The notes: generated from the sequence alone by a model not told the origin. A stretch of DNA of 61,591 bases from an uncultured virus (IMG/VR IMGVR_UViG_3300020187_000013) (IMGVR_UViG_3300020187_000013), one strand, 5' to 3'. Counted from the stretch's first letter, positions 1 through 61,591 are shown. A program made the numbers and translations.

Positions 1-2
1 TT

Positions 3-3000
3 GTAGAATCTATTATAGGGCCTTCTCAGAAAGTCGCAATTAGTGCAATAGAATATTATGGTCCTGATTATTCTACAGTTCTATCTACCGAATTAAATTA
101 TTCTAAATCAATTAAAAATGGTAAATTTGATAAATTTACAGGAACACTTCCATCTGATTATATTCAAATTACTAATAATGAACTTATAAATTGGGAAATA
201 AATCCTCATATACCCAATAATGAAAGAGAAAAATATTTAAATATCAAAGATACCGGTTCATTAGCAATAGATTTGCCATCATGGGGGGATTCTATAAGCT
301 CAAAATTTTCAATAAGTTTATGGATTTATAATAAAGGCGGCGATCATAGAGGTACTATTATAAGTCAGGGATGGAACCATAGTGGCTCACAGTGGGTAAA
401 CCCCGAGACAGGATGGATTATTTATTTTGGCAGTGATGGATATTCACCTAATTATAATAGTAGATGTATATATTTTGCATTTGGAAACAAAAGTTGGGCT
501 TTAAAAGGTACTGGTATGAGACAAACAGCAACAAATAGCATTAAAGATAATACATGGCATAATATAATTATAATAAGAGATACTTATAATTTAGATATCT
601 ATATTGATAATATAAAGCAAACGTTATATAAAGATGGTACCAATGATAACGATGAAGGGCTGGGATCAAACATAATAGGATATTCATCAACAAAATTACA
701 TTTAGGATGGAATGAGAGTTCTGAAAACTATAATACAGGAATTTTTGATGGATATCTTAAAAACCTTTATATTTTTAATACAGCTATTTCAGATATTAAT
801 CGAAACTCTTTATCTTCATCTAGATTTAATAATGATACAAATTATGAGACTTATTCTGATTTAGTAGCCTATTGGCCATTTAATAATGACCTAACAAGTA
901 AAAAAAATGAAGAAGATATATTTTATGGAAACCCCACTCCCACATATGTATTGGATTTAGATTATAATAATAATTATTCACAAAATTCCTACATAAATTA
1001 TATACATAAAAATAGTGAAACATACAGCCTACCTTCTGTTATAGGAAATTATTTTATTGGATTATATAGTTCTAGTTCATTGTATCCTACTAAAATTAAA
1101 CATAAAATAGGATCATCTATCTCAGCAGGTGACTATAAGATTAGTTGGTATGCTGTTAATAATCTAAGTTATGGAAATTCAAAACTTAAGGCTGAATTTA
1201 TCAACGAAAGTGATATTACTTTAAATTCAAAGGAATTTGATTTATTTACAATATGGAATAGATATGAATTAATTATCACTAATTCGCCTGAAACTCTATA
1301 TATTCAATTTACAAATTTAGGTACAAATATGAAATCAACAATATTTATAGATAATGTAATGATAGAATCTACTGATAAAAATAAATTAACAGGAAATGAT
1401 TTTGAAGAAAAATTAGATACTGTAGTAATTAAAAATTTTACAATACCTTCTATAGAGGAGCTTCGTGATAAACCCTATACAGGATATATAAAAATGACTG
1501 TAACAAAACCTGCTGGTACTGAAGTGTCGTTCTCATACCTAGGTATATTTGCTGAGGAAGACCATGCTATAAATGGATCTGGAGGCTACATTCACGGTGA
1601 TAATAATAACTTATTACATAAATACTTTAAAGAGCAGAGGGCAACAGGGTCCATGTACCCTAGCCAAACTGAGCACGTGCAAGGAAACACACGATGGCAT
1701 CAGCACACTTATTTAAGCAATTGGGGTACGGCGTTTGGGTCATGGATGATGAATGATATAAATGATATTGAAGGTTTAATTCAGATATTTGGAGGTGAAT
1801 TGGACAGAGTTGCGATGATGACACACGGCACAACTACATATGACGACTGGAATCGAGCAGGAATCCGCGGACAAGGGGTGAAATTTAAAGGAAACCAATC
1901 ATCTATACTTGGTGATAATAATACATATTTAATGATAAAAGTTAAAGATATACCTAAAAATTGTTATTGTAAGATGTCAGGCCTACGAACTACTGGAGTA
2001 AAAAATGTGTATTGGCAATTAGAATTTTCAGAAACTGGAAATTCAGGGACGTGGGAAACAATTCAAAGTACATTTACACCATCAGAAAATATTAATTATA
2101 GTGATGGTACATCTTTTAATGCTAACACCACATATAATACCAATAGTAGCCAAACATATGACTCAAATGATGAAGTAGATAATATTCGTAAAATATTTAA
2201 ACTAACATTCCCGACTCGTCAAATAAATACTTTACCTCCTTTAGATTTTAAAGTATCCATTAAACATCCAACGATAGATGATAGATCCTATTTTATCGGG
2301 AATAAAACTATAAATACATATTCAAAACTAATATACGACAGAGGGTTTGACCATGTAGAACTGAGAACTAATTTAAAAGATCATATAATAATTAGTAATC
2401 ATGTATCTGATTGGAAACAGTCAAATAATACGAGTGTTACCCTTAATGGACCTACATTATTAATAGAAAATTATGTACATAGTTTAAATGAATCCGAATG
2501 GGAATTTGAAGGAGCTAGAAATATATGGTACGAGGAAAGTTCCAATGTTGGCTTGTCTTTTCATTCATTAGGTGCAGGCAAATATTTTAAGCCTCTAGAC
2601 AATAACTCTTTCTGGCTTTACCGAATTGGAGCTAATCCTTCAACTGATAATTATCTAATTTCATATCATAATACAGGAAAATTACTAAATTGGAAGAGTA
2701 ATAAAAAATATTATTTGCGTACAATGATATTTAATTTTGAACCTGCTGAAAAAATCGGAAGTAGTAGATTCTTCGCTAACACGGATGGGGGGGGCTCTTA
2801 TGCTAGGTGGGATGATGTTTACGGTGCTAATAATACAACAGGTAGAGGAGCTGGTTTTATGGTAAGAGATACCAGCTGGTCCAACAATCCTAATGAATCG
2901 CTAGGATATAGTGGTTCAATTATAAATTTACAAAAAGTATTAAGTAATGAGTGGGTAATAGTTAGTTACCAATTTAAATATGATGAGGTTAAAGTATATA

Positions 3001-3902
3001 ATAATTCAGTATCAAATATGATAGGTTTAGACTATACTCGTGGTGCAACAAACGGTCATGGTCCAGATTCTTGGCGGCCCTACAATGTGCGCACTAGTCA
3101 ATCAAATTTGTTAGCCCAGACAGCGGCAAGTAGAGCATCATTAGGAGTTGGCTCCCCCTCTCCTTCTTATAGGGCACCTTATTTTGCTGGAATGACTTAT
3201 CATGCTCGTGATACAGAATTTACAGAAGCAGAAATGAAAGATCTACATTTAACTTTTATGGAACATTATAATATACATAGACCTCCTGGTTATTATCTTG
3301 TTTATCCAGAAGTACATATAAATAATATTTTAATTGGATATACTGAACAAGCTAATACTGGAGGTCATGATCAAAAAACACTTTATAATATTACATTATC
3401 GTCTGATAGTAATTTAATTATTTCTGATGTACAAAACTTCCCAGGTACATGTTTAAATGTGTATAGATATTTTAGATGTCAAACTCAAAATTCGGATTCT
3501 AATATACAAATAGAACCTGGCACCCCAGGAATATCAGATTCAATAGGTTATTTTATAAAATCTAATGAGGATCAAAATATAATGATATATGGTGAAATAC
3601 AAAATTCTGTAGATGAATACTATATATGGTTAAAAACAGCAACAGGGTATAATTACACAGGATATGGACTATTTAGAGAAGATGAATTAACAAATTCAAG
3701 AAGCTATGATGATACATCAAATCTTTTAGATGGAGAAGCACCATCACGTGCTAGATCATGGTGGGCTGGGTGGAAACCAACTCACGCAAAAAAATGGCAA
3801 TTAAAGAAAGATATTAATTATGCTTTTATTGTGGGAAAAGCAAATGATAATTCAACTGCGTATTTACCTAGAATAAAATGGTATTTTAACCGCACTACTT
3901 AA
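3..3902 (+). CDS. 5'-truncated large putative virion surface/adhesin protein with a LamG/concanavalin-A-like domain and carbohydrate-binding-like beta-sandwich domains
   Basis: The frame of ORF 273..3902 is open back to nt 3 (VESIIGPSQKVAISA...), so the TTG at 273 is not the start. LamG-like motifs: FSISLWIY...GWIIYF...DNTWHNIII...IYIDN...LHLG...FDGYLKNLYIFNTAIS...LVAYWPFN. DUF642/CBM-like motifs: NGKFD...GDYKISWY...WNRYEL...IFIDNV. Confidence 0.75.
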   Translation, partial: VESIIGPSQKVAISAIEYYGPDYSTVLSTELNYSKSIKNGKFDKFTGTLPSDYIQITNNELINWEINPHIPNNEREKYLNIKDTGSLAIDLPSWGDSISSKFSISLWIYNKGGDHRGTIISQGWNHSGSQWVNPETGWIIYFGSDGYSPNYNSRCIYFAFGNKSWALKGTGMRQTATNSIKDNTWHNIIIIRDTYNLDIYIDNIKQTLYKDGTNDNDEGLGSNIIGYSSTKLHLGWNESSENYNTGIFDGYLKNLYIFNTAISDINRNSLSSSRFNNDTNYETYSDLVAYWPFNNDLTSKKNEEDIFYGNPTPTYVLDLDYNNNYSQNSYINYIHKNSETYSLPSVIGNYFIGLYSSSSLYPTKIKHKIGSSISAGDYKISWYAVNNLSYGNSKLKAEFINESDITLNSKEFDLFTIWNRYELIITNSPETLYIQFTNLGTNMKSTIFIDNVMIESTDKNKLTGNDFEEKLDTVVIKNFTIPSIEELRDKPYTGYIKMTVTKPAGTEVSFSYLGIFAEEDHAINGSGGYIHGDNNNLLHKYFKEQRATGSMYPSQTEHVQGNTRWHQHTYLSNWGTAFGSWMMNDINDIEGLIQIFGGELDRVAMMTHGTTTYDDWNRAGIRGQGVKFKGNQSSILGDNNTYLMIKVKDIPKNCYCKMSGLRTTGVKNVYWQLEFSETGNSGTWETIQSTFTPSENINYSDGTSFNANTTYNTNSSQTYDSNDEVDNIRKIFKLTFPTRQINTLPPLDFKVSIKHPTIDDRSYFIGNKTINTYSKLIYDRGFDHVELRTNLKDHIIISNHVSDWKQSNNTSVTLNGPTLLIENYVHSLNESEWEFEGARNIWYEESSNVGLSFHSLGAGKYFKPLDNNSFWLYRIGANPSTDNYLISYHNTGKLLNWKSNKKYYLRTMIFNFEPAEKIGSSRFFANTDGGGSYARWDDVYGANNTTGRGAGFMVRDTSWSNNPNESLGYSGSIINLQKVLSNEWVIVSYQFKYDEVKVYNNSVSNMIGLDYTRGATNGHGPDSWRPYNVRTSQSNLLAQTAASRASLGVGSPSPSYRAPYFAGMTYHARDTEFTEAEMKDLHLTFMEHYNIHRPPGYYLVYPEVHINNILIGYTEQANTGGHDQKTLYNITLSSDSNLIISDVQNFPGTCLNVYRYFRCQTQNSDSNIQIEPGTPGISDSIGYFIKSNEDQNIMIYGEIQNSVDEYYIWLKTATGYNYTGYGLFREDELTNSRSYDDTSNLLDGEAPSRARSWWAGWKPTHAKKWQLKKDINYAFIVGKANDNSTAYLPRIKWYFNRTT

Positions 3903-3945
3903 TAAAAAAACAAAAAAATAACAACAAATATATAAATTTGATAGA

Positions 3946-3969
3946 ATTTGTAAAATATATTTTACAAAT
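3946..3969. terminator. Perfect 24-nt palindrome downstream of gene 1 (candidate giant-virus 3'-end/polyadenylation hairpin)
   Basis: ATTTGTAAAATA|TATTTTACAAAT, starting ~45 nt after the stop codon. Confidence 0.5.
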
Positions 3970-4029
3970 AGAATTAAAAATTCATTTATATAGATTTAAT
4001 ATTGTATAATATTATATATATAATATTAA

Positions 4030-16314
<12,285 letters not shown>

Positions 16315-16606
16315 TAGTAATTTATATTAATAAGATTGAATGTTTTATCTAATTTATTATAAATTGATAATAATAAATTATTAAATTATCTTCATTTGAT
16401 TATAATTCATCTATTATAGCTAAAATAAAATTTGTAACTTATTCAAAAAAAAATCATAATTTTGTTATATCTAGAATGATATAATTCATTAAATGTTAAA
16501 TAATAATAAAGTTCTATCTATAATGTTTCAAATAAACAATATACATAAAGGTTTGCTTTATGATGTATATCATACCTAAAATTAACAGTATATAAATAGA
16601 TTTAAT

Positions 16607-16640
16607 AATTATATTTATTTTTAAAAAAATAAATATAATT
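16607..16640. terminator. 16-bp perfect inverted repeat in the gene 2/gene 3 spacer
   Basis: AATTATATTTATTTTT-aa-AAAAATAAATATAATT. A second 11-bp stem lies at 16350-16380. Confidence 0.45.
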
Positions 16641-16669: not shown

Positions 16670-25411
<8,742 letters not shown>

Positions 25412-33984: not shown

Positions 33985-46575
<12,591 letters not shown>

Positions 46576-46598
46576 AATATTTAGATGGTGTTACCGGA

Positions 46599-49500
46599 TT
46601 GATACAAGATCAAATTGATACCAAACAGGTGATTGTTACTGGAGCTGCTACTACTATTACTGGTACTGACCTAAATTCAAATATGGCTATGATATCCGAT
46701 ATTAGTGGAAAAGTTGCTGTTTCTAGTAAAGTTACCACAACTGAATTAGAATATTTAGATGGAGTTACTGGACTCCTACAAGATCAAATCAATACCAAGC
46801 AGGTCATTGTTACTGGAGCCGCTACTACAATTACTGGTCTAGACCTACAAGCAAATATGGCTATGATTTCGGATATCAGCGGTAAAGTCGCTGTTTCCAG
46901 TAAAGTCACAACAACAGAATTAGAATATTTAGATGGAGTCACTGGATTGGTACAAGAACAAATTGATACCAAACAGGTTATTGTTACCGGAGCCGCTACT
47001 ACTATTACTGGTACTAATCTAGATACAAATATGGCCATGGTATCTGATAACACTGGTAAAGTCGCTGTTTCAAGTAAAGTTACCACAACTGAATTAGAAT
47101 ATTTAGATGGTGTTACCGGATTGATACAAGATCAAATCGACACTAAACAAGTGATTGTTACTGGAGCTGCTACTACTATTACTGGTACTAATCTAGATAT
47201 AAATATGGCTATGATTTCGGATAATACTGGTAAAGTCGCTGTTTCCAGTAAAGTCACAACAACAGAATTAGAATATTTAGATGGAGTCACTGGATTGGTA
47301 CAAGAACAAATTGATACTAAACAAGTGATTGTTACTGGAGCTGCCACTACAATTACTGGTCTAAACCTAGATGCAGATATGGCCATGATTTCTGATAATA
47401 GTGGTAAAGTGGCTGTTTCCAGTAAAGTAACCACAACCGAATTAGAATATTTAGACGGAGTTACCGGATTGGTGCAGGATCAAATCAATACCAAGCAGGT
47501 TATTGTCACTGGAGCTGCTACCACAATTACTGGTCTAGATTTAGATACAAATATGGCTATGATTTCGGATAACACTGGTAAAGTGGCCGTTTCTACTAAG
47601 GTTACTACTACCGAATTAGAATATCTAGATGGAGTTACTGGACTCCTACAAGATCAAATCAATACCAAACAGGTCATTGTTACTGGAGCTGCCACTACAA
47701 TTACTGGTCTAAATTTAGATACAAATATGGCTATGATTTCGGACATCAGCGGTAAAGTAGCTGTTTCTAGTAAAGTTACTACTACTGAGTTAGAATATTT
47801 AGATGGGGTTACTGGATTGGTACAAGATCAAATTGATACTAAACAAGTCATTGTTACTGGAGCCGCTACTACAATCACAGGTCTAAATTTGGATGCAAAT
47901 ATGGCCATGATTTCGGATATCAGCGGTAAAGTTGCTGTTTCCAGTAAAGTTACTACTGTTGAGTTAGAATATTTAGATGGCGTTACTGGACTCATACAAG
48001 ATCAAATCAATACCAAACAGGTTATTGTTACTGGTGCCGCTACTACCATTACTGGTACTAATCTAGATATAAATATGGCTATGATTTCGGATAATAATGG
48101 TAAAGTCGCTGTTTCCAACAAAGTAACCACAACCGAATTAGAATATTTAGATGGTGTTACTGGACTCATACAAGATCAAATCAATACCAAACAGGTCATT
48201 GTTACTGGAGCTGCTACTACAATTACAGGTCTAGATTTAGATGTAAATATGGCCATGGTATCTGATAACACTGGTAAAGTGGCTGTTTCAAGTAAAGTTA
48301 CTACTACCGAATTAGAATATTTAGATGGAGTTACTGGATTAGTACAAGATCAAATCAATACCAAACAGGTTATTGTTACTGGTGCCGCTACTACCATTAC
48401 TGGTACTAATCTAGATATAAATATGGCTATGATTTCTGATAACAGTGGAAAAGTGGGTGTTTCTAGTAAGGTTACTACTACCGAATTAGAATATTTAGAT
48501 GGAGTTACAGGGTTGATACAAGATCAAATCAATACCAAACAGGTCATTGTTACTGGAGCCGCTACTACGATTACTGGTCAAAACCTAGATACAAATATGG
48601 CTATGATTTCGGATAACACTGGTAAAGTCGCTGTTTCCACTAAGGTTACTACCACAGAGTTAGAATATTTAGATGGTGTTACTGGACTCGTTCAAGATCA
48701 AATCAATACTAAGCAAGTCATTGTTACTGGTGCAGCTACTACAATTACAGGTGAAGATTTAGATACGAATATGGCTATGATTTCTGATAATGATGGTAAA
48801 GTCGCTGTTTCCAATAAAGTTACTACAGTTGAATTAGAATATCTAGATGGAGTTACTGGACTTATACAAGATCAAATCGATACTAAGCAAGTGATTGTTA
48901 CTGGAGCTGCTACTACAATTACAGGTATTGATTTAGATGCAAATATGGCTATGATTTCGGATAATACTGGTAAAGTGGCCGTTTCCAATAAAGTTACTAC
49001 TACCGAATTAGAGTATTTAGATGGTGTTACTGGATTAGTACAAGATCAAATCAACACCAAACAGGTAATTGTTACCGGAGCCGCTACTACAATCACAGGT
49101 CAAGATTTAGTTTCTAATATGGCTATGGTATCTGATACAGATGGTAAAGTGGCTGTTTCCACTAAAGTTACTACCACAGAGTTAGAATATTTAGATGGTG
49201 TTACTGGACTCCTACAAGATCAAATCAATACTAAGCAAGTTATTGTTACTGGAGCCGCTACTACGATTACTGGCATTGATTTAGATGCAAATATGGCGAT
49301 GATTTCTAACAACAGTGGTAAGGTGGCCGTTTCCAGTAAAGTTAGCACAACAGAATTAGAATATTTAGATGGAGTTACTGGTCTCCTACAAGATCAAATC
49401 AATACCAAACAGGTTATTATTACTGGAGCTGCTACTACAATAACAGGAAATGACCTTCTTCATAACATGGCTATGATTACAGATGATTATGGAAAAGTAG

Positions 49501-52500
49501 GAGTTTCCGATAAGGTTACTACGATAGAATTAGAATATTTAGATGGAGTTACTGGACTGGTACAATCGCAAATCAATACTAAACAGGTCATTATTACTGG
49601 AGCTGCTACTACTATTACAGGCATTGATTTAGATGCGAATATGGCTATGATTTCTGATAATGATGGAAAAGTGACTGTTTCAAGTAAAGTTACTACTACA
49701 GAATTAGAATATTTAGATGGTGTTACTGGATTAGTACAATCGCAAATTGACACCAAGCAAGTAATTGTCACTGGAGCCGCTACTACTATTACTGGTATTA
49801 ATTTAGACACAAATATGGCTATGATTTCTGATACAGATGGTAAAGTTGCCGTTTCCAGTAAGGTTACGACGACTGAGTTGGAATATTTAGACGGAGTCAC
49901 TGGTCTCATTCAAGACCAAATCAACACTAAGCAGGTTATTGTCACTGGAGCCGCTACTACAATTTCAGGTACAGATTTAAACGCAAATATGGCCATGGTA
50001 TCAGACGTTGATGGTAAAGTTGCCGTATCCGACAAGGTCACAACAACAGAATTAGAATATTTAGACGGAGTTACTGGATTGGTACAGGATCAAATCAATA
50101 CAAAACAAGTAATTGTTACTGGAGCTGTTACGACTATTACTGGTATTAATTTAGACGCAAATATGGCTTTAATTTCTGATACAGATGGTAAAGTGGCTGT
50201 TTCCAGTAAAGTTACTACTATTGAGTTGGAATATTTAGAAGGAGTTACTGGACTCGTACAGGATCAAATCAACACTAAGCAGGTTATTGTCACTGGAGCT
50301 GCTACTACAATTACAGGTGAAGATTTAAATGCAAATATGGCTATGATTTCTGACAACAGTGGTAAGGTCGCTGTTTCCAATAAAGTTACTACGGTTGAAT
50401 TAGAATATTTAGATGGAGTTACTGGATTGGTACAGGATCAAATCAATACTAAGCAGGTGATTGTTACTGGAGCTGCTACCACAATTACTGGTACTAATCT
50501 AGATACAAATATGGCTATGATTTCTGATAATACTGGTAAAGTAGCTGTTTCTAGTAAAGTAACAACTACAGAATTAGAATATTTAGATGGAGTTACTGGA
50601 CTTGTACAAGATCAAATCGATACTAAGCAAGTGATTGTTACCGGAGCTGCTACTACGATTACAGGCATTGATCTCGATGCGAATATGGCTATGATATCTG
50701 ATAATGATGGAAAAGTGGCTGTTTCAAGTAAAGTTAGCACAACAGAATTAGAATATTTAGATGGTGTTACTGGATTAGTACAAGATCAAATTGACACCAA
50801 GCAAGTGATTGTTACTGGAGCCGCTACTACGATTACTGGTACTAATCTAGATACAAATATGGCTATGATTTCTGATAATGATGGTAAAGTTGCTGTTTCC
50901 AGTAAAGTTACTACTATAGAATTAGAATATTTAGATGGTGTTACTGGATTAGTACAAGATCAAATAGACACTAAACAGGTCATTGTTACTGGAGCCGCTA
51001 CTACGATTACTGGCATTGATTTAGATGCAAATAAGGCTATGATATCTGATATTAGTGGAAAAGTCTCTGTTTCCAGTAAGGTTACTACTATTGAGTTAGA
51101 ATATCTAGATGGAGTTACTGGATTGATACAAGATCAAATCAATACTAAACAAGTAATTGTTACCGGAGCCGCTACGACTATTACTGGTATAGATTTAAAT
51201 ACAAATATGGCTATGATTTCTGATAATGATGGTAAAGTGGCTGTTTCTAGTAAGGTCACCACTACTGAGCTAGAATATTTAGATGGAGTTACTGGACTCG
51301 TACAAGATCAAATCGATACTAAGCAAGTCATTGTTACTGGAGCCGCTACTACTATTACTGGTACTAATCTAGATACAAATATGGCTATGATTTCTGATAA
51401 CACTGGTAAAGTGGCTGTTTCGAATAAGGTTACAACAACTGAATTAGAATATTTAGATGGTGTTACTGGACTCGTACAGTCTCAAATCGATACCAAACAA
51501 GTCATTGTTACCGGAGCTGCTACTACAATAACTGGTACTAATCTAGATACAAATATGGCTATGATTTCGGATAATGATGGTAAAGTTGCTGTTTCCAGTA
51601 AAGTTACTACTATAGAATTAGAGTATTTAGATGGAGTTACTGGATTGGTACAAGATCAAATCGACACTAAACAGGTCATTGTTACTGGAGCCGCTACTAC
51701 AATCACAGGTGCTCATCTAAATTCAAATATGGCTATGATTTCGAATGATGATGGTAAAGTTGCCGTTTCCAGTAAGGTTACGACGACTGAATTAGAATAT
51801 TTAGATGGAGTTACTGGACTCTTACAAGAACAAATAGACACTAAGCAGGTAATTGTTACCGGAGCCGCTACTAGTATTACTGGTATAGATTTAAATGCAA
51901 ATATGGCCATGATTTCTGATACAGATGGAAAAGTTGCCGTTTCCAGTAAGGTTACTACTACAGAATTAGAATATTTAGATGGAGTCACTGGACTCGTCCA
52001 AGATCAAATCGATACCAAACAGGTTATTGTTACTGGAGCCGCTACTACAGTCACAGGTACAGATTTGGATGCAAATATGGCTATGATATCTGATAATGAT
52101 GGAAAAGTTGCTGTTTCCAGTAAAGTTACTACTGTTGAGTTAGAATATTTAGATGGAGTTACCGGACTCGTCCAAGATCAAATCGATACTAAACAGGTGA
52201 TTGTTACCGGGGCTGCTACTACAATCACAGGTATTAATCTAAATACAAATATGGCTATGATTTCTGATAACACTGGTAAAGTTGCTGTTTCCAGTAAAGT
52301 AACAACAACTGAATTAGAATATTTAGAGGGAGTTACTGGATTGGTACAATCGCAAATCAATACTAAACAAGTTATTGTTACTGGAGCCGCTACTACAATC
52401 ACAGGCACAGATTTAAACACAAATATGGCTATGATTTCGGATAATGATGGGAAAGTCTCTGTTTCCAGTAAGGTTACAACAACTGAATTAGAATATTTAG

Positions 52501-55500
52501 ATGGTGTTACTGGATTGATACAAGATCAAATTGATACTAAACAAGTAATTGTTACCGGAGCCGCTACGACTATTACTGGTATAGATTTAAATGCAAATAT
52601 GGCTATGATTTCTGATAATGATGGGAAAGTAGCTGTTTCCAGTAAAGTTACTACTACAGAGCTAGAATATTTAGATGGAGTTACTGGATTGGTGCAAGAC
52701 CAAATTGACACCAAGCAGGTTATTGTTACTGGAGCTGTTACTACTATTACTGGTACCAATTTAGATACAAATATGGCTATGATTTCTGATAACACTGGTA
52801 AAGTTACTGTTTCAAGTAAAGTTACAACAACTGAATTAGAATATTTAGATGGTGTTACCGGATTGATACAAGATCAAATCGACACTAAACAGGTTATTGT
52901 TACTGGAGCTGCTACTACTATTACTGGTACTAATCTAGATACAAATATGGCTATGATTTCGGATAATACTGGTAAAGTCGCTGTTTCCAATAAAGTAACA
53001 ACAACTGAATTAGAATATCTAGATGGAGTTACTGGCTTGATACAAGATCAAATTGATACCAAACAGGTTATTGTTACTGGAGCCGCTACTACAATCACAG
53101 GTACTAATTTAGATACAAATATGGCTATAATTTCTGATAATGATGGGAAAGTAGCTGTTTCCAGTAAAGTTACTACGACAGAATTAGAATATTTAGATGG
53201 TGTTACTGGATTGATACAAGATCAAATCAATACTAAACAGGTTATTGTTACTGGCGCTGCTACTACAATTACTGGTATAGATTTAAATGCAAATATGGCT
53301 ATGGTATCCGATATTAGTGGAAAAGTTGCCGTTTCTAGTAAAGTTACAACAACTGAATTAGAATATTTAGATGGAGTTACTGGACTCGTACAATCACAAA
53401 TCAATACCAAGCAGGTCATTGTTACTGGAGCCGCTACTACAATCACAGGTACTAATTTAGATGCAAATATGGCTATGATTTCTGATAATTATGGGAAAGT
53501 AGCTGTTTCCAGTAAAGTTACTACAACTGAGTTAGAATATTTAGACGGAGTTACCGGAGTCGTACAAGATCAAATCAATACAAAATTATCAATTTTAATA
53601 GCAGAATCTACGTATGATACAATAACAGGTGTAAATGCCAAAATTAGTGGTGTAATTGGCAATGCTCCAGAAGCATTGGATACATTAAAAGAATTAGCAG
53701 ATGCTCTGAAAAATGACCATGATTATGCTACTACAATTACAAATCACTTAGCAACTAAACAAGTAGTTATTACAGGTGCTGCTACAACTATAACGGGTAC
53801 AAATTTAGATACTAATATGGCTATGATTTCGGATAACACTGGTAAAGTTGCTGTGTCTAATAAAGTCACTACTACTGAATTAGAATATTTAGATGGAGTT
53901 ACTGGAGTTGTACAGTCTCAAATTAATACCAAACAGATCATTGTTACTGGAGCTGCTACTACCATTACTGGTATAGATTTAAATTCAAATATGGCTATGG
54001 TATCAGACGTTGACGGTAAAGTTGCTGTTTCCAGTAAAGTTACCACCACAGAATTAGAATATTTAGATGGTGTTACTGGATTGGTACAAGACCAAATAGA
54101 TACCAAACAGGTCATTGTTACTGGAGCTGCTGCTACAATAACAGGTACTAATTTAGATGCGAATATGGCTATGATTTCTAATGTTAATGGTAAAGTAGCT
54201 GTATCTAATAAAGTTACAACTACAGAATTAGAATATTTAGATGGAGTTACTGGACTTGTACAGTCTCAAATTAATACCAAACAGATCATTGTTACTGGAG
54301 CTGCCACTACAATTACAGGTACAGATTTGGATGCAAATATGGCTATGATATCTGATAATGATGGTAAAGTGGCCGTTTCTAGTAAGGTTACTACTACCGA
54401 ATTAGAATATCTAGATGGAGTTACTGGGTTGATACAAGATCAAATCAATACTAAACAGGTCATTGTTACTGGAGCCGCTACTACAATCACAGGTACAAAT
54501 TTAAATTCAAATATGGCTATGATTTCTGACATCAGCGGTAAAGTCACTGTTTCCAGTAAAGTTACTACTACTGAGTTAGAATATTTAGATGGGGTTACAG
54601 GATTGGTACAGGATCAAATCAATACTAAACAAGTCATTGTCACTGGAGCCGCTACTACAATCACAGGCACAGATTTAAACACAAATATGGCTATGATTTC
54701 GGATAATGATGGTAAAGTCTCTGTTTCCACTAAGGTTACTACTATTGAGTTAGAATATTTAGATGGAGTTACTGGATTGGTGCAAGATCAAATCGATACT
54801 AAACAGGTGATTATTACAGGAGCTGCTACTACTATTACAGGTACTAATTTAGATGCAAATATGGCTTTAATTTCGGATGTTGACGGTAAAGTTGCTGTTT
54901 CTAATAAAGTCACTACCACAGAATTAGAATATTTAGATGGAGTTACTGGTTTAATACAATCCCAAATCAATACTAAACAGGTTATTGTTACTGGAGCTGC
55001 TACTACAATCACAGGTACTAATTTAGATACAAATATGGCTATGATATCTGATAACACTGGTAAAGTCGCTGTTTCCAACAAAGTTACCACTACTGAACTA
55101 GAATATTTAGATGGCGTTACCGGATTAGTACAAGATCAAATCAACACCAAACAAGTTATTGTTACTGGAGCCGCTACTACAATTACTGGCTTAGACTTGG
55201 TTTCTGGTATGGCTATGGTATCAGACGTTGATGGAAAAGTGGCTGTTTCCAATAAAGTTACCACTACAGAATTAGAATATTTGGATGGAATTACCGGATT
55301 AATACAAGATCAAATCAACACCAAACAAGTGATTGTTACTGGAGCTGCTACTACAATCACAGGTACTAATTTAGATATAAATATGGCTATGATTTCGGAT
55401 AATAATGGTAAAATTGCCGTTTCCAATAAAGTTACGACTACTGAGTTAGAATATTTAGATGGAGTTACTGGTCTAGTACAAGACCAAATCGATACCAAAC

Positions 55501-58500
55501 AAGTCATTGTTACGGGAGCTGCTACTAGTATCACAGGCATTGATCTCAATGTGAATATGGCCATGATATCTGATAATAGTGGTAAAGTAGCCGTTTCCAC
55601 CAAAGTCAGCACTACCGAATTGGAATATTTAGACGGGGTTACTGGATTGGTACAAGATCAAATCGACACTAAGCAGGTTATTGTTACCGGGGCTGCTACA
55701 ACAATAACAGGTACAGACTTGGTTTCTGGAAAGGCTATGGTATCTGATAATAGTGGCAAAGTCGCCGTTTCCACCAAAGTTACCACTACCGAATTGGAAT
55801 ATTTAGACGGGGTTACTGGATTGGTACAAGATCAAATAGACACTAAACAAGTCATTGTCACTGGAGCCGCTACTACAATCACAGGTACTAATCTAGATAC
55901 AAATATGGCTATGATTTCAGATAACACTGGTAAAGTCGCTGTTTCCAGTAAGGTTACAACAACTGAATTAGAATATTTAGATGGTGTTACTGGACTTGTA
56001 CAAGATCAAATCGATACTAAGCAGGTGATTGTTACTGGAGCCGCTACTACAATCACAGGTACAAATTTAGTATCAGGTATGGCCATAATTTCTGATATTG
56101 ATGGCAAAGTTGCTGTTTCCAGTAAGGTTACTACTATTGAGTTAGAATATTTAGATGGAGTTACTGGATTAGTACAATCGCAAATCAACACCAAACAGGT
56201 CATTGTGACTGGGGCTGCTACAAGTATCACAGGTACTAATTTAGATACAAATATGGCTATGATTTCGGATAACACTGGTAAAGTGGCTGTTTCAAATAAG
56301 GTTACAACTACAGAATTAGAATATTTAGATGGTGTTACTGGATTGATACAAGACCAAATCAATACCAAACAGGTCATTGTTACTGGAGCCGCTACTACAA
56401 TTACCGGTATAAATTTAGATACAAATATGGCTATGATATCTGATAATAATGGAAAAGTAGCTGTTTCTAATAAGGTTACAACTACAGAATTAGAATATTT
56501 AGATGGTGTTACTGGATTAGTACAAGATCAAATCGATACTAAACAGGTCATTGTTACTGGAGCTGCTACTACAATCACAGGTACTAATTTAGATACGAAT
56601 ATGGCTATGATTTCGGATAACAATGGTAAAGTGGCTGTTTCTAGTAAAGTTACAACTACTGAGTTAGAATATTTAGATGGAGTTAGTGGATTAGTACAAG
56701 ATCAAATTGACACGAAACAGGTGATTGTTACCGGAGCTGCTACTACAATCACAGGTACTAATTTAGATACGAATATGGTGATGATTTCGGATAATACTGG
56801 TAAAGTGGCTGTTTCTAGTAAAGTTACAACTACAGAATTAGAATATTTAGATGGAGTTACTGGATTAGTACAAGATCAAATCGATACAAAACAGGTCATT
56901 GTTACTGGAGCCGCTACTACAATTACTGGTTTAGACTTAGTATCTGGTATGGCTATGGTATCAAATACAGATGGAAAGGTTGCCGTTTCAGACAAGGTGT
57001 CAACAACTGAACTAGAATATTTAGAAGGAGTTACTGGATTAGTACAAGATCAAATTGATACCAAACAGGTCATTGTTACCGGGGCTGCTACTACAATCAC
57101 AGGTACTAATTTAGATACGAATATGGCTATGATTTCGAATAATACTGGTAAAGTAGCTGTTTCAAGTAAGGTTACAACTACAGAATTAGAATATTTAGAT
57201 GGAGTTACTGGACTCGTACAAGATCAAATCGATACTAAACAGGTTATTGTTACTGGAGCTGCAACTACAATAACAGGTACTAATCTAGATACAAATATGG
57301 CTATGATTTCTGACAATAGTGGAAAAGTTGCTGTTTCTAGCAAAGTTACTACGACTGAATTAGAATATTTAGATGGAGTTACTGGACTTGTACAAGATCA
57401 AATTGACACTAAACAGGTTATTGTTACCGGAGCTGCTACTACAATCACAGGTACAAATCTAGATACAAATATGGCTATGATTTCTGATAATACTGGTAAA
57501 GTAGCGGTTTCCAGTAAAGTCACTACGACTGAATTAGAATATTTAGATGGAGTTACTGGCGTAGTACAAGCACAAATCAATACTAAACAAGTTATTATTA
57601 CTGGAGCTGCTACTACAATTACCGGCCAAGATTTGCTTGCAAATATGGCTATGATATCTGATATTGATGGAAAAGTGGCTGTTTCTAGTAAGGTAACTAC
57701 GACAGAATTGGAATATTTAGATGGAGTTACTGGATTGGTACAGGACCAAATTGACACTAAACAGGTTATTGTTACTGGAGCTGCTACTACAATTACCGGA
57801 AATGATCTTCTTCATAATATGGCCATGATTACAGATGAATATGGAAAAGTTGCAGTATCTGATAAGGTATCATCAATTGAATTAGAATATTTAGATGGAG
57901 TTACTGGATTAGTACAATCGCAAATCAATACTAAACAGGTTATTGTTACTGGAGCTGCTACTACAATAACTGGTCAAGACTTGGTATCTGGAATGGCCAT
58001 GATATCAGACGTTGATGGAAAAGTGGCTGTTTCTAGTAAGGTAACGACGACAGAATTAGAATATTTAGATGGAGTTACTGGACTTATACAAGATCAAATC
58101 AATACTAAACAGGTGATTATTACTGGAGCTGCTACTACAATAACTGGTCAAGACTTGGTATCTGGAATGGCCATGGTATCTGATACAGATGGAAAAGTTG
58201 CCGTTTCTAGTAAAGTAACAACAACAGAGTTAGAATATTTAGAGGGAATTACGGGATTGGTACAAGACCAAATCAATACTAAGCAGGTGATTGTTACTGG
58301 AGCCGTTACAACTATAACCGGTACTAATTTGGATACTAATATGGCTATGATTTCTGATAATACTGGTAAAGTGGCTGTTTCCAATAAAGTTACAACTACA
58401 GAGTTAGAATATTTAAATGGTGTTACTGGATTAGTACAAGAACAAATCAACACTAAACAGGTTATTGTTACTGGAGCTGCTACTACAATTACAGGTATCG

Positions 58501-59717
58501 ACTTAGTATCTAGTATGGCTATGGTATCAGACGTTGATGGAAAAGTAGCTGTTTCTAGTAAAGTAACCACTATAGAGTTGGAATATTTAGATGGAGTTAC
58601 TGGATTGGTACAAGACCAAATCGATACTAAGCAAGTGATTGTTACTGGAGCTGCTACTACAATAACAGGTATAGACTTAGCTTCTGATATGGCCATGGTA
58701 TCAGACGTTGATGGAAAAGTTGCGGTTTCCAATAAAGTAACCACGACCGAATTAGAATATTTAGATGGAGTTACTGGATTAGTACAAGATCAAATCAATA
58801 CAAAACAGGTTATCATTACTGGGGCTGCTACAACAATAACAGGTCAAGACTTAGTATCTGGAAAGGCTATGGTATCTGATACAGATGGAAAAGTGGCTGT
58901 TTCTAGTAAAGTCACTACTACTGAGTTAGAATATTTAGATGGGGTTACGGGATTGGTACAAGATCAAATCGATACTAAACAGGTTATTGTCACTGGTGCT
59001 GCTACAACAATAACAGGTACAGACCTGGTTTCTGGTATGGCCATGATTTCTGATACAGATGGGAAAGTTGCCGTTTCTAATAAAGTAACCACGATCGAAT
59101 TAGAATATTTAGATGGAGTTACGGGATTAGTACAAGACCAAATCAATACTAAACAGGTCATTGTTACTGGAGCTGCTACAACAATAACAGGTACAGATTT
59201 AGATTCAAATATGGCTATGATATCTGATACAGATGGTAAAGTGGCTGTTTCTAGTAAAGTAAGTAAGACAGAGTTAGAATATTTAGATGGAGTTACTGGA
59301 TTGGTTCAAGATCAAATCAATACCAAACAGGTTATTGTAACTGGAGCTGCTACAACGATAACTGGTACAAATCTAGATACAAATATGGCTATGATTTCGG
59401 ATAACACTGGTAAAGTGGCTGTTTCTAGCAAAGTCACTACGACAGAATTAGAATATTTAGATGGAGTTACTGGATTAGTACAAGATCAAATCAATACAAA
59501 ACAGGTTATTATTACTGGGGCTGCTACAACAATAACCGGTCAAGACTTAGTATCTGGAAAGGCTATGGTATCTGATACAGATGGAAAAGTGGCTGTTTCT
59601 AGTAAAGTCACTACTACTGAGTTAGAATATTTAGATGGGGTTACGGGATTGGTACAAGACAAAATCACAAGTAATTATTACTGGAGCTGCTACAACAATA
59701 ACTGGTACAAATCTTGA
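46599..59717 (+). CDS. Giant fibre protein, segment 2: pure 58-aa repeat array (continuation of the gene starting at 33985)
   Basis: Starts mid-repeat at a TTG with no intergenic spacer. The frame is already in repeat register from ~46533. It ends in an out-of-frame tail (ITSNYYWSCYNNNWYKS) after an 8-nt deletion. Confidence 0.8.
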   Translation: MIQDQIDTKQVIVTGAATTITGTDLNSNMAMISDISGKVAVSSKVTTTELEYLDGVTGLLQDQINTKQVIVTGAATTITGLDLQANMAMISDISGKVAVSSKVTTTELEYLDGVTGLVQEQIDTKQVIVTGAATTITGTNLDTNMAMVSDNTGKVAVSSKVTTTELEYLDGVTGLIQDQIDTKQVIVTGAATTITGTNLDINMAMISDNTGKVAVSSKVTTTELEYLDGVTGLVQEQIDTKQVIVTGAATTITGLNLDADMAMISDNSGKVAVSSKVTTTELEYLDGVTGLVQDQINTKQVIVTGAATTITGLDLDTNMAMISDNTGKVAVSTKVTTTELEYLDGVTGLLQDQINTKQVIVTGAATTITGLNLDTNMAMISDISGKVAVSSKVTTTELEYLDGVTGLVQDQIDTKQVIVTGAATTITGLNLDANMAMISDISGKVAVSSKVTTVELEYLDGVTGLIQDQINTKQVIVTGAATTITGTNLDINMAMISDNNGKVAVSNKVTTTELEYLDGVTGLIQDQINTKQVIVTGAATTITGLDLDVNMAMVSDNTGKVAVSSKVTTTELEYLDGVTGLVQDQINTKQVIVTGAATTITGTNLDINMAMISDNSGKVGVSSKVTTTELEYLDGVTGLIQDQINTKQVIVTGAATTITGQNLDTNMAMISDNTGKVAVSTKVTTTELEYLDGVTGLVQDQINTKQVIVTGAATTITGEDLDTNMAMISDNDGKVAVSNKVTTVELEYLDGVTGLIQDQIDTKQVIVTGAATTITGIDLDANMAMISDNTGKVAVSNKVTTTELEYLDGVTGLVQDQINTKQVIVTGAATTITGQDLVSNMAMVSDTDGKVAVSTKVTTTELEYLDGVTGLLQDQINTKQVIVTGAATTITGIDLDANMAMISNNSGKVAVSSKVSTTELEYLDGVTGLLQDQINTKQVIITGAATTITGNDLLHNMAMITDDYGKVGVSDKVTTIELEYLDGVTGLVQSQINTKQVIITGAATTITGIDLDANMAMISDNDGKVTVSSKVTTTELEYLDGVTGLVQSQIDTKQVIVTGAATTITGINLDTNMAMISDTDGKVAVSSKVTTTELEYLDGVTGLIQDQINTKQVIVTGAATTISGTDLNANMAMVSDVDGKVAVSDKVTTTELEYLDGVTGLVQDQINTKQVIVTGAVTTITGINLDANMALISDTDGKVAVSSKVTTIELEYLEGVTGLVQDQINTKQVIVTGAATTITGEDLNANMAMISDNSGKVAVSNKVTTVELEYLDGVTGLVQDQINTKQVIVTGAATTITGTNLDTNMAMISDNTGKVAVSSKVTTTELEYLDGVTGLVQDQIDTKQVIVTGAATTITGIDLDANMAMISDNDGKVAVSSKVSTTELEYLDGVTGLVQDQIDTKQVIVTGAATTITGTNLDTNMAMISDNDGKVAVSSKVTTIELEYLDGVTGLVQDQIDTKQVIVTGAATTITGIDLDANKAMISDISGKVSVSSKVTTIELEYLDGVTGLIQDQINTKQVIVTGAATTITGIDLNTNMAMISDNDGKVAVSSKVTTTELEYLDGVTGLVQDQIDTKQVIVTGAATTITGTNLDTNMAMISDNTGKVAVSNKVTTTELEYLDGVTGLVQSQIDTKQVIVTGAATTITGTNLDTNMAMISDNDGKVAVSSKVTTIELEYLDGVTGLVQDQIDTKQVIVTGAATTITGAHLNSNMAMISNDDGKVAVSSKVTTTELEYLDGVTGLLQEQIDTKQVIVTGAATSITGIDLNANMAMISDTDGKVAVSSKVTTTELEYLDGVTGLVQDQIDTKQVIVTGAATTVTGTDLDANMAMISDNDGKVAVSSKVTTVELEYLDGVTGLVQDQIDTKQVIVTGAATTITGINLNTNMAMISDNTGKVAVSSKVTTTELEYLEGVTGLVQSQINTKQVIVTGAATTITGTDLNTNMAMISDNDGKVSVSSKVTTTELEYLDGVTGLIQDQIDTKQVIVTGAATTITGIDLNANMAMISDNDGKVAVSSKVTTTELEYLDGVTGLVQDQIDTKQVIVTGAVTTITGTNLDTNMAMISDNTGKVTVSSKVTTTELEYLDGVTGLIQDQIDTKQVIVTGAATTITGTNLDTNMAMISDNTGKVAVSNKVTTTELEYLDGVTGLIQDQIDTKQVIVTGAATTITGTNLDTNMAIISDNDGKVAVSSKVTTTELEYLDGVTGLIQDQINTKQVIVTGAATTITGIDLNANMAMVSDISGKVAVSSKVTTTELEYLDGVTGLVQSQINTKQVIVTGAATTITGTNLDANMAMISDNYGKVAVSSKVTTTELEYLDGVTGVVQDQINTKLSILIAESTYDTITGVNAKISGVIGNAPEALDTLKELADALKNDHDYATTITNHLATKQVVITGAATTITGTNLDTNMAMISDNTGKVAVSNKVTTTELEYLDGVTGVVQSQINTKQIIVTGAATTITGIDLNSNMAMVSDVDGKVAVSSKVTTTELEYLDGVTGLVQDQIDTKQVIVTGAAATITGTNLDANMAMISNVNGKVAVSNKVTTTELEYLDGVTGLVQSQINTKQIIVTGAATTITGTDLDANMAMISDNDGKVAVSSKVTTTELEYLDGVTGLIQDQINTKQVIVTGAATTITGTNLNSNMAMISDISGKVTVSSKVTTTELEYLDGVTGLVQDQINTKQVIVTGAATTITGTDLNTNMAMISDNDGKVSVSTKVTTIELEYLDGVTGLVQDQIDTKQVIITGAATTITGTNLDANMALISDVDGKVAVSNKVTTTELEYLDGVTGLIQSQINTKQVIVTGAATTITGTNLDTNMAMISDNTGKVAVSNKVTTTELEYLDGVTGLVQDQINTKQVIVTGAATTITGLDLVSGMAMVSDVDGKVAVSNKVTTTELEYLDGITGLIQDQINTKQVIVTGAATTITGTNLDINMAMISDNNGKIAVSNKVTTTELEYLDGVTGLVQDQIDTKQVIVTGAATSITGIDLNVNMAMISDNSGKVAVSTKVSTTELEYLDGVTGLVQDQIDTKQVIVTGAATTITGTDLVSGKAMVSDNSGKVAVSTKVTTTELEYLDGVTGLVQDQIDTKQVIVTGAATTITGTNLDTNMAMISDNTGKVAVSSKVTTTELEYLDGVTGLVQDQIDTKQVIVTGAATTITGTNLVSGMAIISDIDGKVAVSSKVTTIELEYLDGVTGLVQSQINTKQVIVTGAATSITGTNLDTNMAMISDNTGKVAVSNKVTTTELEYLDGVTGLIQDQINTKQVIVTGAATTITGINLDTNMAMISDNNGKVAVSNKVTTTELEYLDGVTGLVQDQIDTKQVIVTGAATTITGTNLDTNMAMISDNNGKVAVSSKVTTTELEYLDGVSGLVQDQIDTKQVIVTGAATTITGTNLDTNMVMISDNTGKVAVSSKVTTTELEYLDGVTGLVQDQIDTKQVIVTGAATTITGLDLVSGMAMVSNTDGKVAVSDKVSTTELEYLEGVTGLVQDQIDTKQVIVTGAATTITGTNLDTNMAMISNNTGKVAVSSKVTTTELEYLDGVTGLVQDQIDTKQVIVTGAATTITGTNLDTNMAMISDNSGKVAVSSKVTTTELEYLDGVTGLVQDQIDTKQVIVTGAATTITGTNLDTNMAMISDNTGKVAVSSKVTTTELEYLDGVTGVVQAQINTKQVIITGAATTITGQDLLANMAMISDIDGKVAVSSKVTTTELEYLDGVTGLVQDQIDTKQVIVTGAATTITGNDLLHNMAMITDEYGKVAVSDKVSSIELEYLDGVTGLVQSQINTKQVIVTGAATTITGQDLVSGMAMISDVDGKVAVSSKVTTTELEYLDGVTGLIQDQINTKQVIITGAATTITGQDLVSGMAMVSDTDGKVAVSSKVTTTELEYLEGITGLVQDQINTKQVIVTGAVTTITGTNLDTNMAMISDNTGKVAVSNKVTTTELEYLNGVTGLVQEQINTKQVIVTGAATTITGIDLVSSMAMVSDVDGKVAVSSKVTTIELEYLDGVTGLVQDQIDTKQVIVTGAATTITGIDLASDMAMVSDVDGKVAVSNKVTTTELEYLDGVTGLVQDQINTKQVIITGAATTITGQDLVSGKAMVSDTDGKVAVSSKVTTTELEYLDGVTGLVQDQIDTKQVIVTGAATTITGTDLVSGMAMISDTDGKVAVSNKVTTIELEYLDGVTGLVQDQINTKQVIVTGAATTITGTDLDSNMAMISDTDGKVAVSSKVSKTELEYLDGVTGLVQDQINTKQVIVTGAATTITGTNLDTNMAMISDNTGKVAVSSKVTTTELEYLDGVTGLVQDQINTKQVIITGAATTITGQDLVSGKAMVSDTDGKVAVSSKVTTTELEYLDGVTGLVQDKITSNYYWSCYNNNWYKS
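53583..53756 (+). other. Phage tail-fibre-like helical unit 2
   Basis: [58 protein letters not shown]. Confidence 0.7.
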
Positions 59718-61591
59718 TACAAATATGGCTATGATTTCTGATAGTACTGGTAAAGTGGCTGTTTCCAGCAAAATAACTACGACAGAATTAGAATATTTAG
59801 ATGGGGTTACTGGCGTAGTACAGGATCAAATTGACACAAAACAGGTGATTGTTACTGGAGCTGCTACAACAATAACAGGTCAAGACTTAGTTTCAGGTAT
59901 GGCCATGATTTCTGATAATAGTGGAAAAGTAGCAGTTTCTAATAAGGTTACCACTACTGAATTAGAATATTTAGATGGAGTTACAGGATTAATACAAGAT
60001 CAAATTGAAACAAAACAGGTCATTGTTACTGGAGCTGCTACTACAATCACCGGTATTAATTTAGATGCTAATATGGCATTGATGTCCAATGCTGATGGAA
60101 AAGTTGCTATTTCGAATAAGGTTACCACTATTGAATTAGAATATTTAGATGGAGTTACTGGACTTCTCCAGGATCAAATCAATACTAAACAGGTGGTTGT
60201 TACTGGTGCCGTTACTACAATTACTGGAAGTAATTTAAGTTCTGATATGGCTATGATATCTAATAGTAATGGTAAAGTGTCAGTTTCTAATAAAGTTACT
60301 AAAATAGAATTAGAATATCTAGATGGAGTTACTGGTGTAGTACAAGATCAAATTAATACTAAATTATCAATATCAAATGCTGAATTAATTTATGATACTA
60401 TAACAGGAGTTAATGCAAAAATAAGTGGTGTTATCGGTAATGCGCCAGAAGCATTAGACACATTAAAAGAATTAGCAGATGCTCTTAATAATAATGATGA
60501 TTATGCCACTACAATTACTAATCAATTAGCAACAAAACAAGTAGTTATAACAGGTGCTGCAACTTCCATAACAGGAAATAATTTAGTACCAGAGATGGCT
60601 ATGTTATCTAATATTAATGGTAAAGTGGCTGTTTCTAATAAAGTTACATCAACAGAATTAGAATATTTAGACGGAGTTACTGGGCTCATACAAAATCAAA
60701 TCAATACCAAACAGGTAATTGTTACTGGAGCTGCTACAACGATAACTGGTACTAATTTAGATATTAATATGGCTATGATATCTGATACAGATGGAAAAGT
60801 ATCTGTTTCAAATAAAGTAACAACTACTGAATTAGAATATTTAGATGGAGTTACGGGATTAGTACAAGACCAAATCAATACTAAACAGGTCATTGTTACT
60901 GGAGCTGCTACAACAATAACAGGTACAGATTTAGATTCAAATATGGCCATGATTTCGGATAACACTGGTAAAGTGGCTGTTTCTAGTAAAGTAAGTAAGA
61001 CAGAGTTAGAATATTTAGATGGAGTTACTAGTCTTGTTCAGGATCAAATAAATAGGAAGCAAGTGATTGTCACTGGAGCTGCTACAACAATAACTGGTAC
61101 TAATTTAGATACGAATATGGTAATGATTTCTGATAATAGCGGCAAAGTAGCCGTTTCCAGTAAAGTCACTACAACTGAATTAGAATATTTAGATGGAGTT
61201 ACTGGACTAGTACAGGATCAAATCAATACTAAACAGGTTATCATTACTGGTGCTGCTACAACAATAACAGGTCAAGACTTAATTTCTGGAATGGCTATGA
61301 TATCTGATATAGATGGTAAAGTTGCCGTTTCTAATAAAGTCACTACTACCGAATTAGAATATTTAGATGGAGTTACTGGATTGGTTCAAAATCAAATTGA
61401 TACTAAACAAGTTATAATAACTGGCGCTGCAACGACTATAACAGGAATAAATCTTATTTCAGGTATGGCTATGATTTCTGATACAGATGGTAAAGTTGCA
61501 GTTTCCAGTAAAGTTACTAGTACTGAATTAGAATATTTAGATGGAGTTACTGGATTGGTTCAAGCTCAAATCGATACTAAGCAAGTAATTG
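59668..61591 (+). CDS. Giant fibre protein, segment 3 (absent from the ORF track; open to the window end)
   Basis: Frame 1 reads [29 protein letters not shown]... without a stop through to caa gta att g at 61591. It includes the third helical unit at 60361. Confidence 0.85.
60361..60534 (+). other. Phage tail-fibre-like helical unit 3
   Basis: [58 protein letters not shown]. Confidence 0.7.

Follow-up and report, generated by a model that had tools for sequence, protein, structure and literature searches.

A >61-kb locus of giant modular collagen-like genes as a candidate structural-gene cluster for long surface fibres of an uncultured marine giant virus

Gene layout and collagen-like tracts

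The DNA analysed here, referred to as the window, is the whole stretch of 61,591 nucleotides (nt) from an uncultured virus (IMG/VR IMGVR_UViG_3300020187_000013), and it contains five genes, g1 to g5, which encode very large collagen-like and other modular proteins and are considered here as candidate fibre genes. All open reading frames (ORFs) of at least 600 codons lie on the plus strand and jointly fill the window, in agreement with the five co-oriented genes of the initial annotation; all modules and repeat features described below are on the same strand. Gene g1 (3–3902) is present as its 3′ part, which encodes 1299 amino acids (aa) of a non-collagen protein, the 5′ end lying beyond the window. 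It is followed by g2 (4030–16314), encoding a collagen-like modular protein of 4094 aa with a non-collagen C-terminal region of 1578 aa (11578–16314), by g3 (16670–25411), encoding a collagen-like modular protein of 2913 aa with a C-terminal region of ∼310 aa at the end of the gene, and by g4 (25473–33809), encoding a multi-domain protein of 2778 aa that lacks collagen tracts and belongs to no known family. The last gene, g5, consists of three ORFs as assembled. The first (33985–46575) encodes 4196 aa, including collagen tracts, globular modules and the start of a long tandem array, the second (46599–59717) adds 4372 codons of repeat units and lacks a start signal of its own, and the third (59635–61590) adds 652 codons of repeat units and is open at the window end. 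The likeliest start of g5 is the ATG at 33985; the alternative TTG at 33898 sits in the AT-rich spacer.

The intergenic spacers are short (61–355 nt) and extremely AT-rich. The GC content ranges from 26 to 47% in 2-kb segments, with its peak in the Gly-rich tracts, and a chance origin of open frames of 2,800–4,400 codons in DNA of this composition is impossible. In Pfam and PHROG scans no enzyme family was detected in any of the five genes, and the four visible N-termini, as judged by eye and not with a signal-peptide program, are polar; the absence of enzymatic genes and of obvious signal peptides, both remarked on earlier, is thereby borne out. The window contains no tRNA or Rfam matches.

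The presence of three collagen paralogues built from one shared module kit, likewise proposed in the initial annotation, is evident from the five alignable module types described below and from matches to Pfam Collagen (PF01391) with E-values of 2e-201, 1e-196 and 3e-103 for g2, g3 and g5, respectively. The three proteins contain 503, 488 and 290 Gly-X-Y triplets, with longest unbroken runs of 97, 83 and 67 triplets. In each of them the collagen part starts with a tract of 36–40 triplets, where Lys occupies Y more often than any other residue does (9 of 40, 12 of 36 and 14 of 36 triplets). Past this N-terminal tract the triplets are mostly Gly-X-Thr, with Thr at 79% of the Y positions in g2 and g3 and at 45% in g5, and Pro occupies merely 4–9% of the X and Y positions. 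A collagen helix rises 0.286 nm per residue, and with this value, by analogy with known collagens, the triple-helical parts of g2, g3 and g5 would span approximately 432, 419 and 249 nm. Gly-Trp-Thr triplets occur 50 times in g2, 78 times in g3 and five times in g5, with tracts rich in them at 10537–11561 (g2) and 21559–23988 (g3), and a 4301-aa relative (P0164) has more still. Such an abundance of Trp in the X position is unusual for a triple helix.

Globular modules, tandem array and non-collagen proteins

The collagen tracts are separated by 33 globular inserts, which fall into five alignable types: H (three copies), A (nine), B (14), C (four) and D (three). Gene g2 carries one H, three A, five B and one C module, g3 one H, one C, three A, five B and one D module, and the first ORF of g5 one H, three A, four B, two C and two D modules. 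Module H (4414–4788, 17057–17404 and 34330–34707) is present as a single copy per collagen gene, positioned just after the Lys-rich tract, with 34–35% identity between the copies. It matches no Pfam or PHROG family and has no relatives among proteins of 220–2000 aa. Module A, exemplified by the copy at 5446–5631, comprises 58–69 aa with the consensus FNIVKIW...GDYG.VKGG.LF...W.F.GNF and has no family match in Pfam or PHROG. Module C (66–82 aa; one of its four copies is at 10738–10983) is without a Pfam or PHROG family and without a match in the PDB.

Module B, of 107–135 aa and with a representative copy at 36883–37236, is predicted to form a cupredoxin-like β-sandwich. The AlphaFold2 (AF2) model, based on an alignment of 49 sequences, has a predicted local distance difference test score (pLDDT) of 93.8. 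A Foldseek search against the PDB returns the cupredoxin AcoP (entries 7z3b and 7z3f; E-values of 5e-6 to 2e-5, template modelling (TM) scores of 0.59–0.64, 11–13% identity), and the best matches in BFVD are tail-fibre domains of Synechococcus and Prochlorococcus phages (E-values of 6e-9 to 5e-8, TM scores of 0.68–0.77, 19–30% identity). In addition, the module matches phrog_677, 'baseplate wedge tail fiber protein connector', with an E-value of 4e-12. The copper ligands of cupredoxins are Cys, His and Met residues in the C-terminal loop. Module B has the same β-sandwich fold as cupredoxins such as AcoP and the laccase domains, but differs from them in these ligands: the Cys...His...Met pattern is absent in 13 of the 14 copies and is kept solely in the copy at 24008–24469 (RCKWHTGM). 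Since one copy in 14 has the ligand pattern and the identity to the cupredoxins is 11–13%, the modelled domain is probably a structural node rather than a copper protein. The type-1-copper-like Cys-x2-His-x2-Met loop of the copy at 24008–24469 may be either a genuine metal site or a relic.

Module D was defined by multiple alignment of its three copies (22229–22459, 36598–36810 and 38725–38940). All seven relatives of this module in IMG/VR sit in collagen-like genes. Six of these loci were scanned with PHROG, locus L018 being omitted as a near copy of L017, and five of the six carry phage genes for tail proteins, terminase, portal, tail sheath, tail tube, baseplate hub or endolysin. On two phage contigs, of 181 and 257 kb, module D is part of a collagen-like fibre gene of 2,157–2,169 aa (L017 3284–9793, L018 3320–9793), which also contains a repeat that matches phrog_21918 in six stretches (E-value of 9e-64). 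In an all-against-all HMMER search with g5 residues 145–1212, the 60,277 matches are mostly to collagen, and six of the 150 matches listed contain a non-collagen module.

The most extended feature of the window is the tandem array of g5 (39940–61591), which consists of ∼124 units: eight diverged units of 57 residues, followed by 58-residue (174-nt) units that continue past the window end. Tandem Repeats Finder identifies this period of 174 nt with 29.9 and 86.6 copies, and conservation reaches 90% or more at most positions of the array. The 58-residue repeat has a match in phrog_16122 ('virion structural protein'; E-value of 4e-31) and is present in five of 50,697 phage records. A search covering proteins of up to 2000 aa yields 1,908 related proteins of 610–2000 aa. 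Among seven of these relatives that were checked with Pfam, two end in Peptidase_S74, while a tail Collar domain, a combination of Mtd_N and Collagen, and Gly_rich_2 were found in one each. In prokaryote genomes a lone weak match of 31 residues was obtained. When the 58-residue repeat and modules B and C were compared with PDB sequences, no match fell below an E-value of 0.03. An AF2 monomer model of three repeat units has a pLDDT of 38; failure to fold as a monomer would be expected of an obligate oligomer, though it is no evidence of one.

Three units of 58 residues within the array (45136–45309, 53580–53753 and 60358–60531 in the unit map) are spacer units with a tail-fibre motif. They match many tail-fibre PHROGs, the best with an E-value of 1.5e-13 (in the window as a whole, at least nine tail-fibre or tail PHROGs are matched in addition to phrog_677 and phrog_16122), and in the PDB the 'tail collar fibers gp4' of 9d93 (E-value of 5e-4) and the 'fiber upper gp68' of 6v8i (E-value of 8e-3). 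The intervals between the spacer units are 8,444 and 6,778 nt, corresponding to 49 and ∼39 units if 82 and 8 nt missing from the array are restored, and a fixed super-period is absent.

These missing nucleotides mark two breaks in the reading frame. At frameshift 1, between 46531 and 46532, a unit has lost 82 nt, which leaves a 92-nt unit followed by a stop codon at 46573–46575; at frameshift 2, between 59666 and 59667, 8 nt are missing in comparison with the neighbouring unit. The last gene had been described as exceeding 9,200 codons. As assembled it comprises three ORFs in different frames, and a length of 9,202 codons is reached only if both breaks are bridged. As 4,372 and 652 codons are still open downstream, the lesions should be either artefactual or very recent. 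Contigs from three independent DNA runs and one RNA-library run that match the region 45500–60500 are short pieces with zero indels, and none of those listed bridges either frameshift.

It is a serious, if less likely, alternative that both lesions are real, in which case g5 would end after 4,196 aa and the rest of the array would be a very young pseudogene. Both are clean deletions (82 and 8 nt) relative to the adjoining units, and the 82-nt lesion joins short similar words (GATACCA, GATATTA-type) in a slippage-like manner, whereas a short-read misjoin would need a long shared k-mer. On the other hand, real lesions in DNA of 35–37% GC that remains open for 4,372 and 652 more codons would have to be extremely recent, and tandem arrays are easily misassembled. 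Contigs from the RNA library match the flanks of frameshift 1 at 46303–46488 (0 differences) and 48485–48634 (2 differences), which is a weak hint against a pseudogene, as DNA may contaminate such a library. Contig joints from marine runs within the same part of the array (45500–60500) skip 838–6,765 nt, the sides of these joints all being shorter than 31 letters, and the joint from 55114 to 60082 was seen in two runs of different studies. Variation in the copy number of the array is only hinted at.

The two proteins without collagen tracts had been described as lectin-like, a description for which the sequence matches are weak. Residues 88–263 of g1 (264–791) resemble LamG/ConA-like domains, with a match to Laminin_G_3 (E-value of 4.6e-6) just below the cutoff (27.3 versus 27.6 bits), and g4 matches no family. 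For g4 and the C-terminal region of g2 no Pfam or PHROG match was found, for Pfam even at an E-value of 10. A match to SLBB_2 in Pfam was distrusted as repeat-driven. Gene g1 shares 39% identity over 250 aa with a 1679-aa protein with Gly_rich_2 and LamG domains, which adjoins a collagen gene at a metagenome locus (L003), and Ig-like repeats with 27–29% identity are common to g4 and the C-terminal region of g2. In a search of 5.8 billion proteins only two relatives of g4 were identified, P0001 (88% identity) and P0002 (69% identity), whose cluster members derive from marine metagenomes; in IMG/VR neither g4 nor g1 has close relatives. A protein-atlas search with the C-terminal 429 aa of g4 gave a best score of 0.76 and no lead. 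P0001 and P0002 are near-identical to g4 over long stretches, with blocks inserted or replaced, one of which resembles part of the C-terminal region of g2. These inserted or replaced blocks point to module shuffling among strains, as far as can be judged from the alignments.

Relatives of the locus and its genome of origin

The window holds no marker gene, and its placement consequently rests on its relatives. Its first 46 nt have no match in the viral and metagenome contigs searched. Searches with module B reveal one IMG/VR locus (1 of 212 pattern matches) and nine metagenome loci on six contigs (13 of 230), and the complete kit of modules H, A, B, C and D recurs at 35–53% identity in the collagen proteins of these marine metagenome and IMG/VR loci. 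The last 50 kb of a contig of 104,076 bp encode a collagen of at least 877 aa, a non-collagen protein of 1297 aa and collagens of 4070, 3464, 3447 and at least 3005 aa, and the N-termini of the last two collagens are like those of g2 and g3, in the same order. A 4301-aa member of the family is encoded by an IMG/VR contig of 190,856 bp. The next 30 kb of this contig contain genes for a protein with DnaJ and DnaJ-X domains, a glutaminase with ankyrin repeats, a type I DnaJ and a RING-like protein, together with Exo_endo_phos, GT2, LicD, dUTPase, the ribonucleotide reductase small subunit and RNase HII. A 60-mer of the same contig is also present in a contig named GVMAG-M-.... Also within the 30 kb next to the 4301-aa member, in bases 14,700–44,721 of the 190,856-bp contig (L002, L012 and L021), are genes for a full dynamin (N, M and GED) and a ubiquitin-activating E1. 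Other relatives adjoin C2H2 zinc-finger, MUG113/T5orf172 and GT1 genes. Of the sampled g4 words, 26–100% are found in each of 14 DNA runs whose labels read marine, aquatic or plain 'metagenome'.

The giant-virus origin put forward in the initial annotation is supported indirectly, by the kit-sharing relatives next to eukaryote-type genes and by the one overlap with a GVMAG contig, whereas the window itself lacks a marker of the nucleocytoplasmic large DNA viruses (NCLDV). The window probably derives from an uncultured giant virus of the same marine lineage as these relatives, judging from the shared sequences and their neighbourhoods. Among metagenome-assembled genomes (MAGs), collagen genes are reported only from marine Imitervirales MAGs of family IM_09, with genomes of 478–574 kb and 25–31% GC; the same paper includes AaV and PkV in IM_09 and proposes that the collagen genes act in the virion (PMC9732441). 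With a probability of roughly 0.6, the window is a structural-gene cluster for very long segmented surface fibres of an uncultured marine Imitervirales-like giant virus. Within this reading the fibre or adhesin role, which had been claimed before, is well supported by the homology of several modules to parts of phage tail fibres.

Several observations weigh against it. The window, which holds just the five fibre genes, contains no NCLDV hallmark gene, and neither the major capsid protein nor PolB nor A32 was found in the 44.7 kb of the 190,856-bp contig that were read. Relative synonymous codon usage correlates with that of the giant-virus flanks with r of 0.98 and with that of phage loci with r of 0.94, values that provide no discrimination. 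Several modules are of phage type, so that the window taken alone is compatible with a phage origin, and the protein-atlas clusters nearest to g1 are labelled Uroviricota (score of 0.94, to be taken as a lead only). Gene g5 is broken twice; if these breaks are real, its protein ends at 46575 and ∼15 kb of array are untranslated. Finally, the location of the proteins on a virion is putative.

The phage-type modules allow a different assignment of the window, to the tail-fibre cluster of a very large tailed phage such as a cyanophage-like jumbo phage. The identifiable relatives of modules B and D, of the 58-residue repeat and of the spacer motif all belong to phage tail-fibre proteins. The atlas clusters nearest to g1 bear Uroviricota labels, and collagen fibre genes with module D are present on the 181- and 257-kb phage contigs. 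Nevertheless, these phage relatives share single modules at 33–38% identity (63% in one match of 19 residues), whereas the relatives with the whole kit, at 35–53% identity, adjoin eukaryote-type and not phage genes. Moreover, Pfam and PHROG scans reveal no phage hallmark gene in the window, and fibre genes of >61 kb would occupy at least one third of the genome even in a jumbo phage. A phage origin is thus regarded as improbable.

The sequences at the gene borders bear on another possibility, namely that the window is cellular and comes from a bacterium or a protist, whose giant surface fibres would be comparable to BclA-like exosporium hairs or adhesins. The dominance of Gly-X-Thr triplets, with Thr at 79% of the Y positions, is the pattern of BclA-type bacterial collagens. 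Shine-Dalgarno-like sequences, however, are absent: GGAG or AGGA does not occur within 20 bases before the ATG at any of 21 gene starts, four of which are those of the window. Signal peptides and anchors are not visible, and the genes are intron-free and tightly packed, unlike most protist genomes. In addition, none of 98 pattern matches to module B could be confirmed among 185,579 prokaryote species genomes, in which the repeat has its one weak match of 31 residues. A cellular origin is therefore considered very improbable.

A TA-rich stretch of the type TTAATAA(n)TATTATATATAT lies just before the ATG and is common to the collagen genes of the window and its relatives. Such upstream stretches are located at 3960–4029, 16600–16669, 25403–25472 and 33915–33984 in the window, at 1589–1658 in L001 and at 7306–7375 in L003, and also in L008, L009 and L010. 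They may form a common, perhaps late, promoter. The Mimivirus early-promoter octamer AAAATTGA occurs four times on the plus strand and five times on the minus strand of the window, in no case upstream of a gene start. An AT-rich hairpin with perfect 21-bp arms is present at 33832–33875, 23 nt past the stop codon of g4, and weaker palindromes follow g1 (3937–3978; 21 nt, 81%) and g2 (16307–16377; 24 nt, 83%). The ends of Mimivirus transcripts are marked by hairpins, of which these 3′ palindromes are reminiscent, in spacers that are AT-rich throughout.

Proposed fibre model and comparison with known systems

If the window indeed encodes surface fibres of a giant virus, a plausible arrangement of the proteins can be proposed by analogy with collagens and phage tail fibres. 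The N-terminal Lys/Asp/Glu-rich collagen tract and the H domain, which is unique in each collagen gene, would form the anchoring or registering end of the chain. Beyond this end, Thr-rich Gly-X-Thr rods of up to 97 unbroken triplets would alternate with small globular nodes, formed by modules A to D, and lead to specialised distal ends, i.e., the 1,578-aa non-collagen region in g2 and, in g5, the phage-type shaft of ∼124 repeats with three tail-fibre-motif units in between. The chains would assemble into homotrimers that project from the particle as segmented flexible ropes and bind to host surfaces. Proteins g1 and g4 could be non-collagen partner or tip proteins, which together with the distal parts would mediate the binding to host surfaces. 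We infer the location on the virion, the adhesive function, the trimerisation and the viral origin of the window from the gene content and its relatives, and the dedicated tail or tentacle of the initial annotation, with its trimers and length estimates, is equally hypothetical. The Thr-rich rods may be O-glycosylated in a BclA-like manner, for which glycosyltransferase genes near the relatives provide weak support; for O-glycosylation of the Thr residues of BclA, see the references within PMC9614988.

Proteins of a giant virus with this composition might also serve elsewhere than in virion appendages, for example in a cell-surface or extracellular matrix on infected cells, as a scaffold of the virus factory or as a mesh in which particles are embedded. 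No result sets the proteins on a particle, and >61 kb would be a great deal of coding capacity to spend on appendages. Such a role is nonetheless judged unlikely, since several modules are homologous to fibre parts of phage virions, and the four N-termini without a signal peptide or membrane anchor visible by eye make export from the cell unlikely.

A far-reaching form of the surface-fibre model would take the frameshifts as assembly errors and g5 as a single intact gene with well over 9,200 codons, the product of which forms micrometre-scale segmented tentacles together with those of g2 and g3. This is speculative and rather doubtful. If true, g5 would be among the longest viral genes known, and the tentacles would combine a collagen rope, cupredoxin-like nodes and a phage-type shaft of 124 or more units to reach several capsid diameters. 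They would enlarge the radius within which a marine giant virus can capture rare host cells, and the genes would be the first candidates for the long appendages on environmental giant-virus-like particles.

Long fibres, tails and tentacle-like appendages on giant-virus particles have been seen by microscopy, and to our knowledge few of the genes behind them have been identified. The locus and its relatives suggest that an abundant marine giant-virus clade devotes tens of kilobases to fibres, and that these fibres are built from a reusable kit in which collagen and phage tail-fibre parts are mixed. The apparent module shuffling between strains suggests an evolution of host recognition that resembles that of phage fibres. 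The collagen chemistry is unusual as well, combining Gly-X-Thr triplets, many Gly-Trp-Thr triplets and low proline, and the locus provides concrete targets for proteomics, cryo-electron tomography and recombinant work.

Collagen-like genes of giant viruses, the collagen genes of marine IM_09 MAGs and collagen-like tail fibres of phages are already known. Searches of open-access text on giant-virus collagens, fibrils and Imitervirales turned up no all-fibre locus of >61 kb, no kit of five modules, no cupredoxin-like node in common with cyanophage fibres and no shaft of ∼124 units. Like the genes of the window, the Mimivirus collagens (L71, R196, R239–R241, L668 and L669), compared here by description only, and the collagen genes of the IM_09 MAGs encode giant-virus proteins with Gly-X-Y repeats and low proline; the frequent Lys at Y in the N-terminal tracts of the window is a further point of similarity. 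In contrast to these known collagens, those of Mimivirus being modified by the enzyme L230, the genes of the window are two to several times longer, are composed mostly of Gly-X-Thr triplets and include 33 globular modules that are partly of phage type, and an L230-like enzyme is not present in the window. A structural role of collagen-like genes in giant viruses has been suggested (PMC9614988, PMC9732441).

The exosporium collagens of the BclA/Pasteuria type share with the window Thr-rich Gly-X-Thr repeats of variable length, and form hair-like surface filaments. The window differs from BclA in its viral context, in having no C1q-like C-terminal domain by Pfam, and in lengths that are tens of times greater. 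Module B has the same fold as the proximal tail-fibre and baseplate-connector proteins of T4-like cyanophages, at 20–30% identity. Phage fibre proteins, among which are collagen-like ones and ones with a Peptidase_S74 chaperone, also contain module D, the 58-residue repeat and the spacer unit. In g5 the corresponding site for a C-terminal chaperone would fall beyond the window. Unlike the phage tail fibres, the genes of the window are not in a phage neighbourhood, reach a far larger scale, with ∼124 repeat units as against relatives of at most 2000 aa, the upper size limit of the search, and combine the phage-type parts with modules H, A and C, which are lineage-specific.

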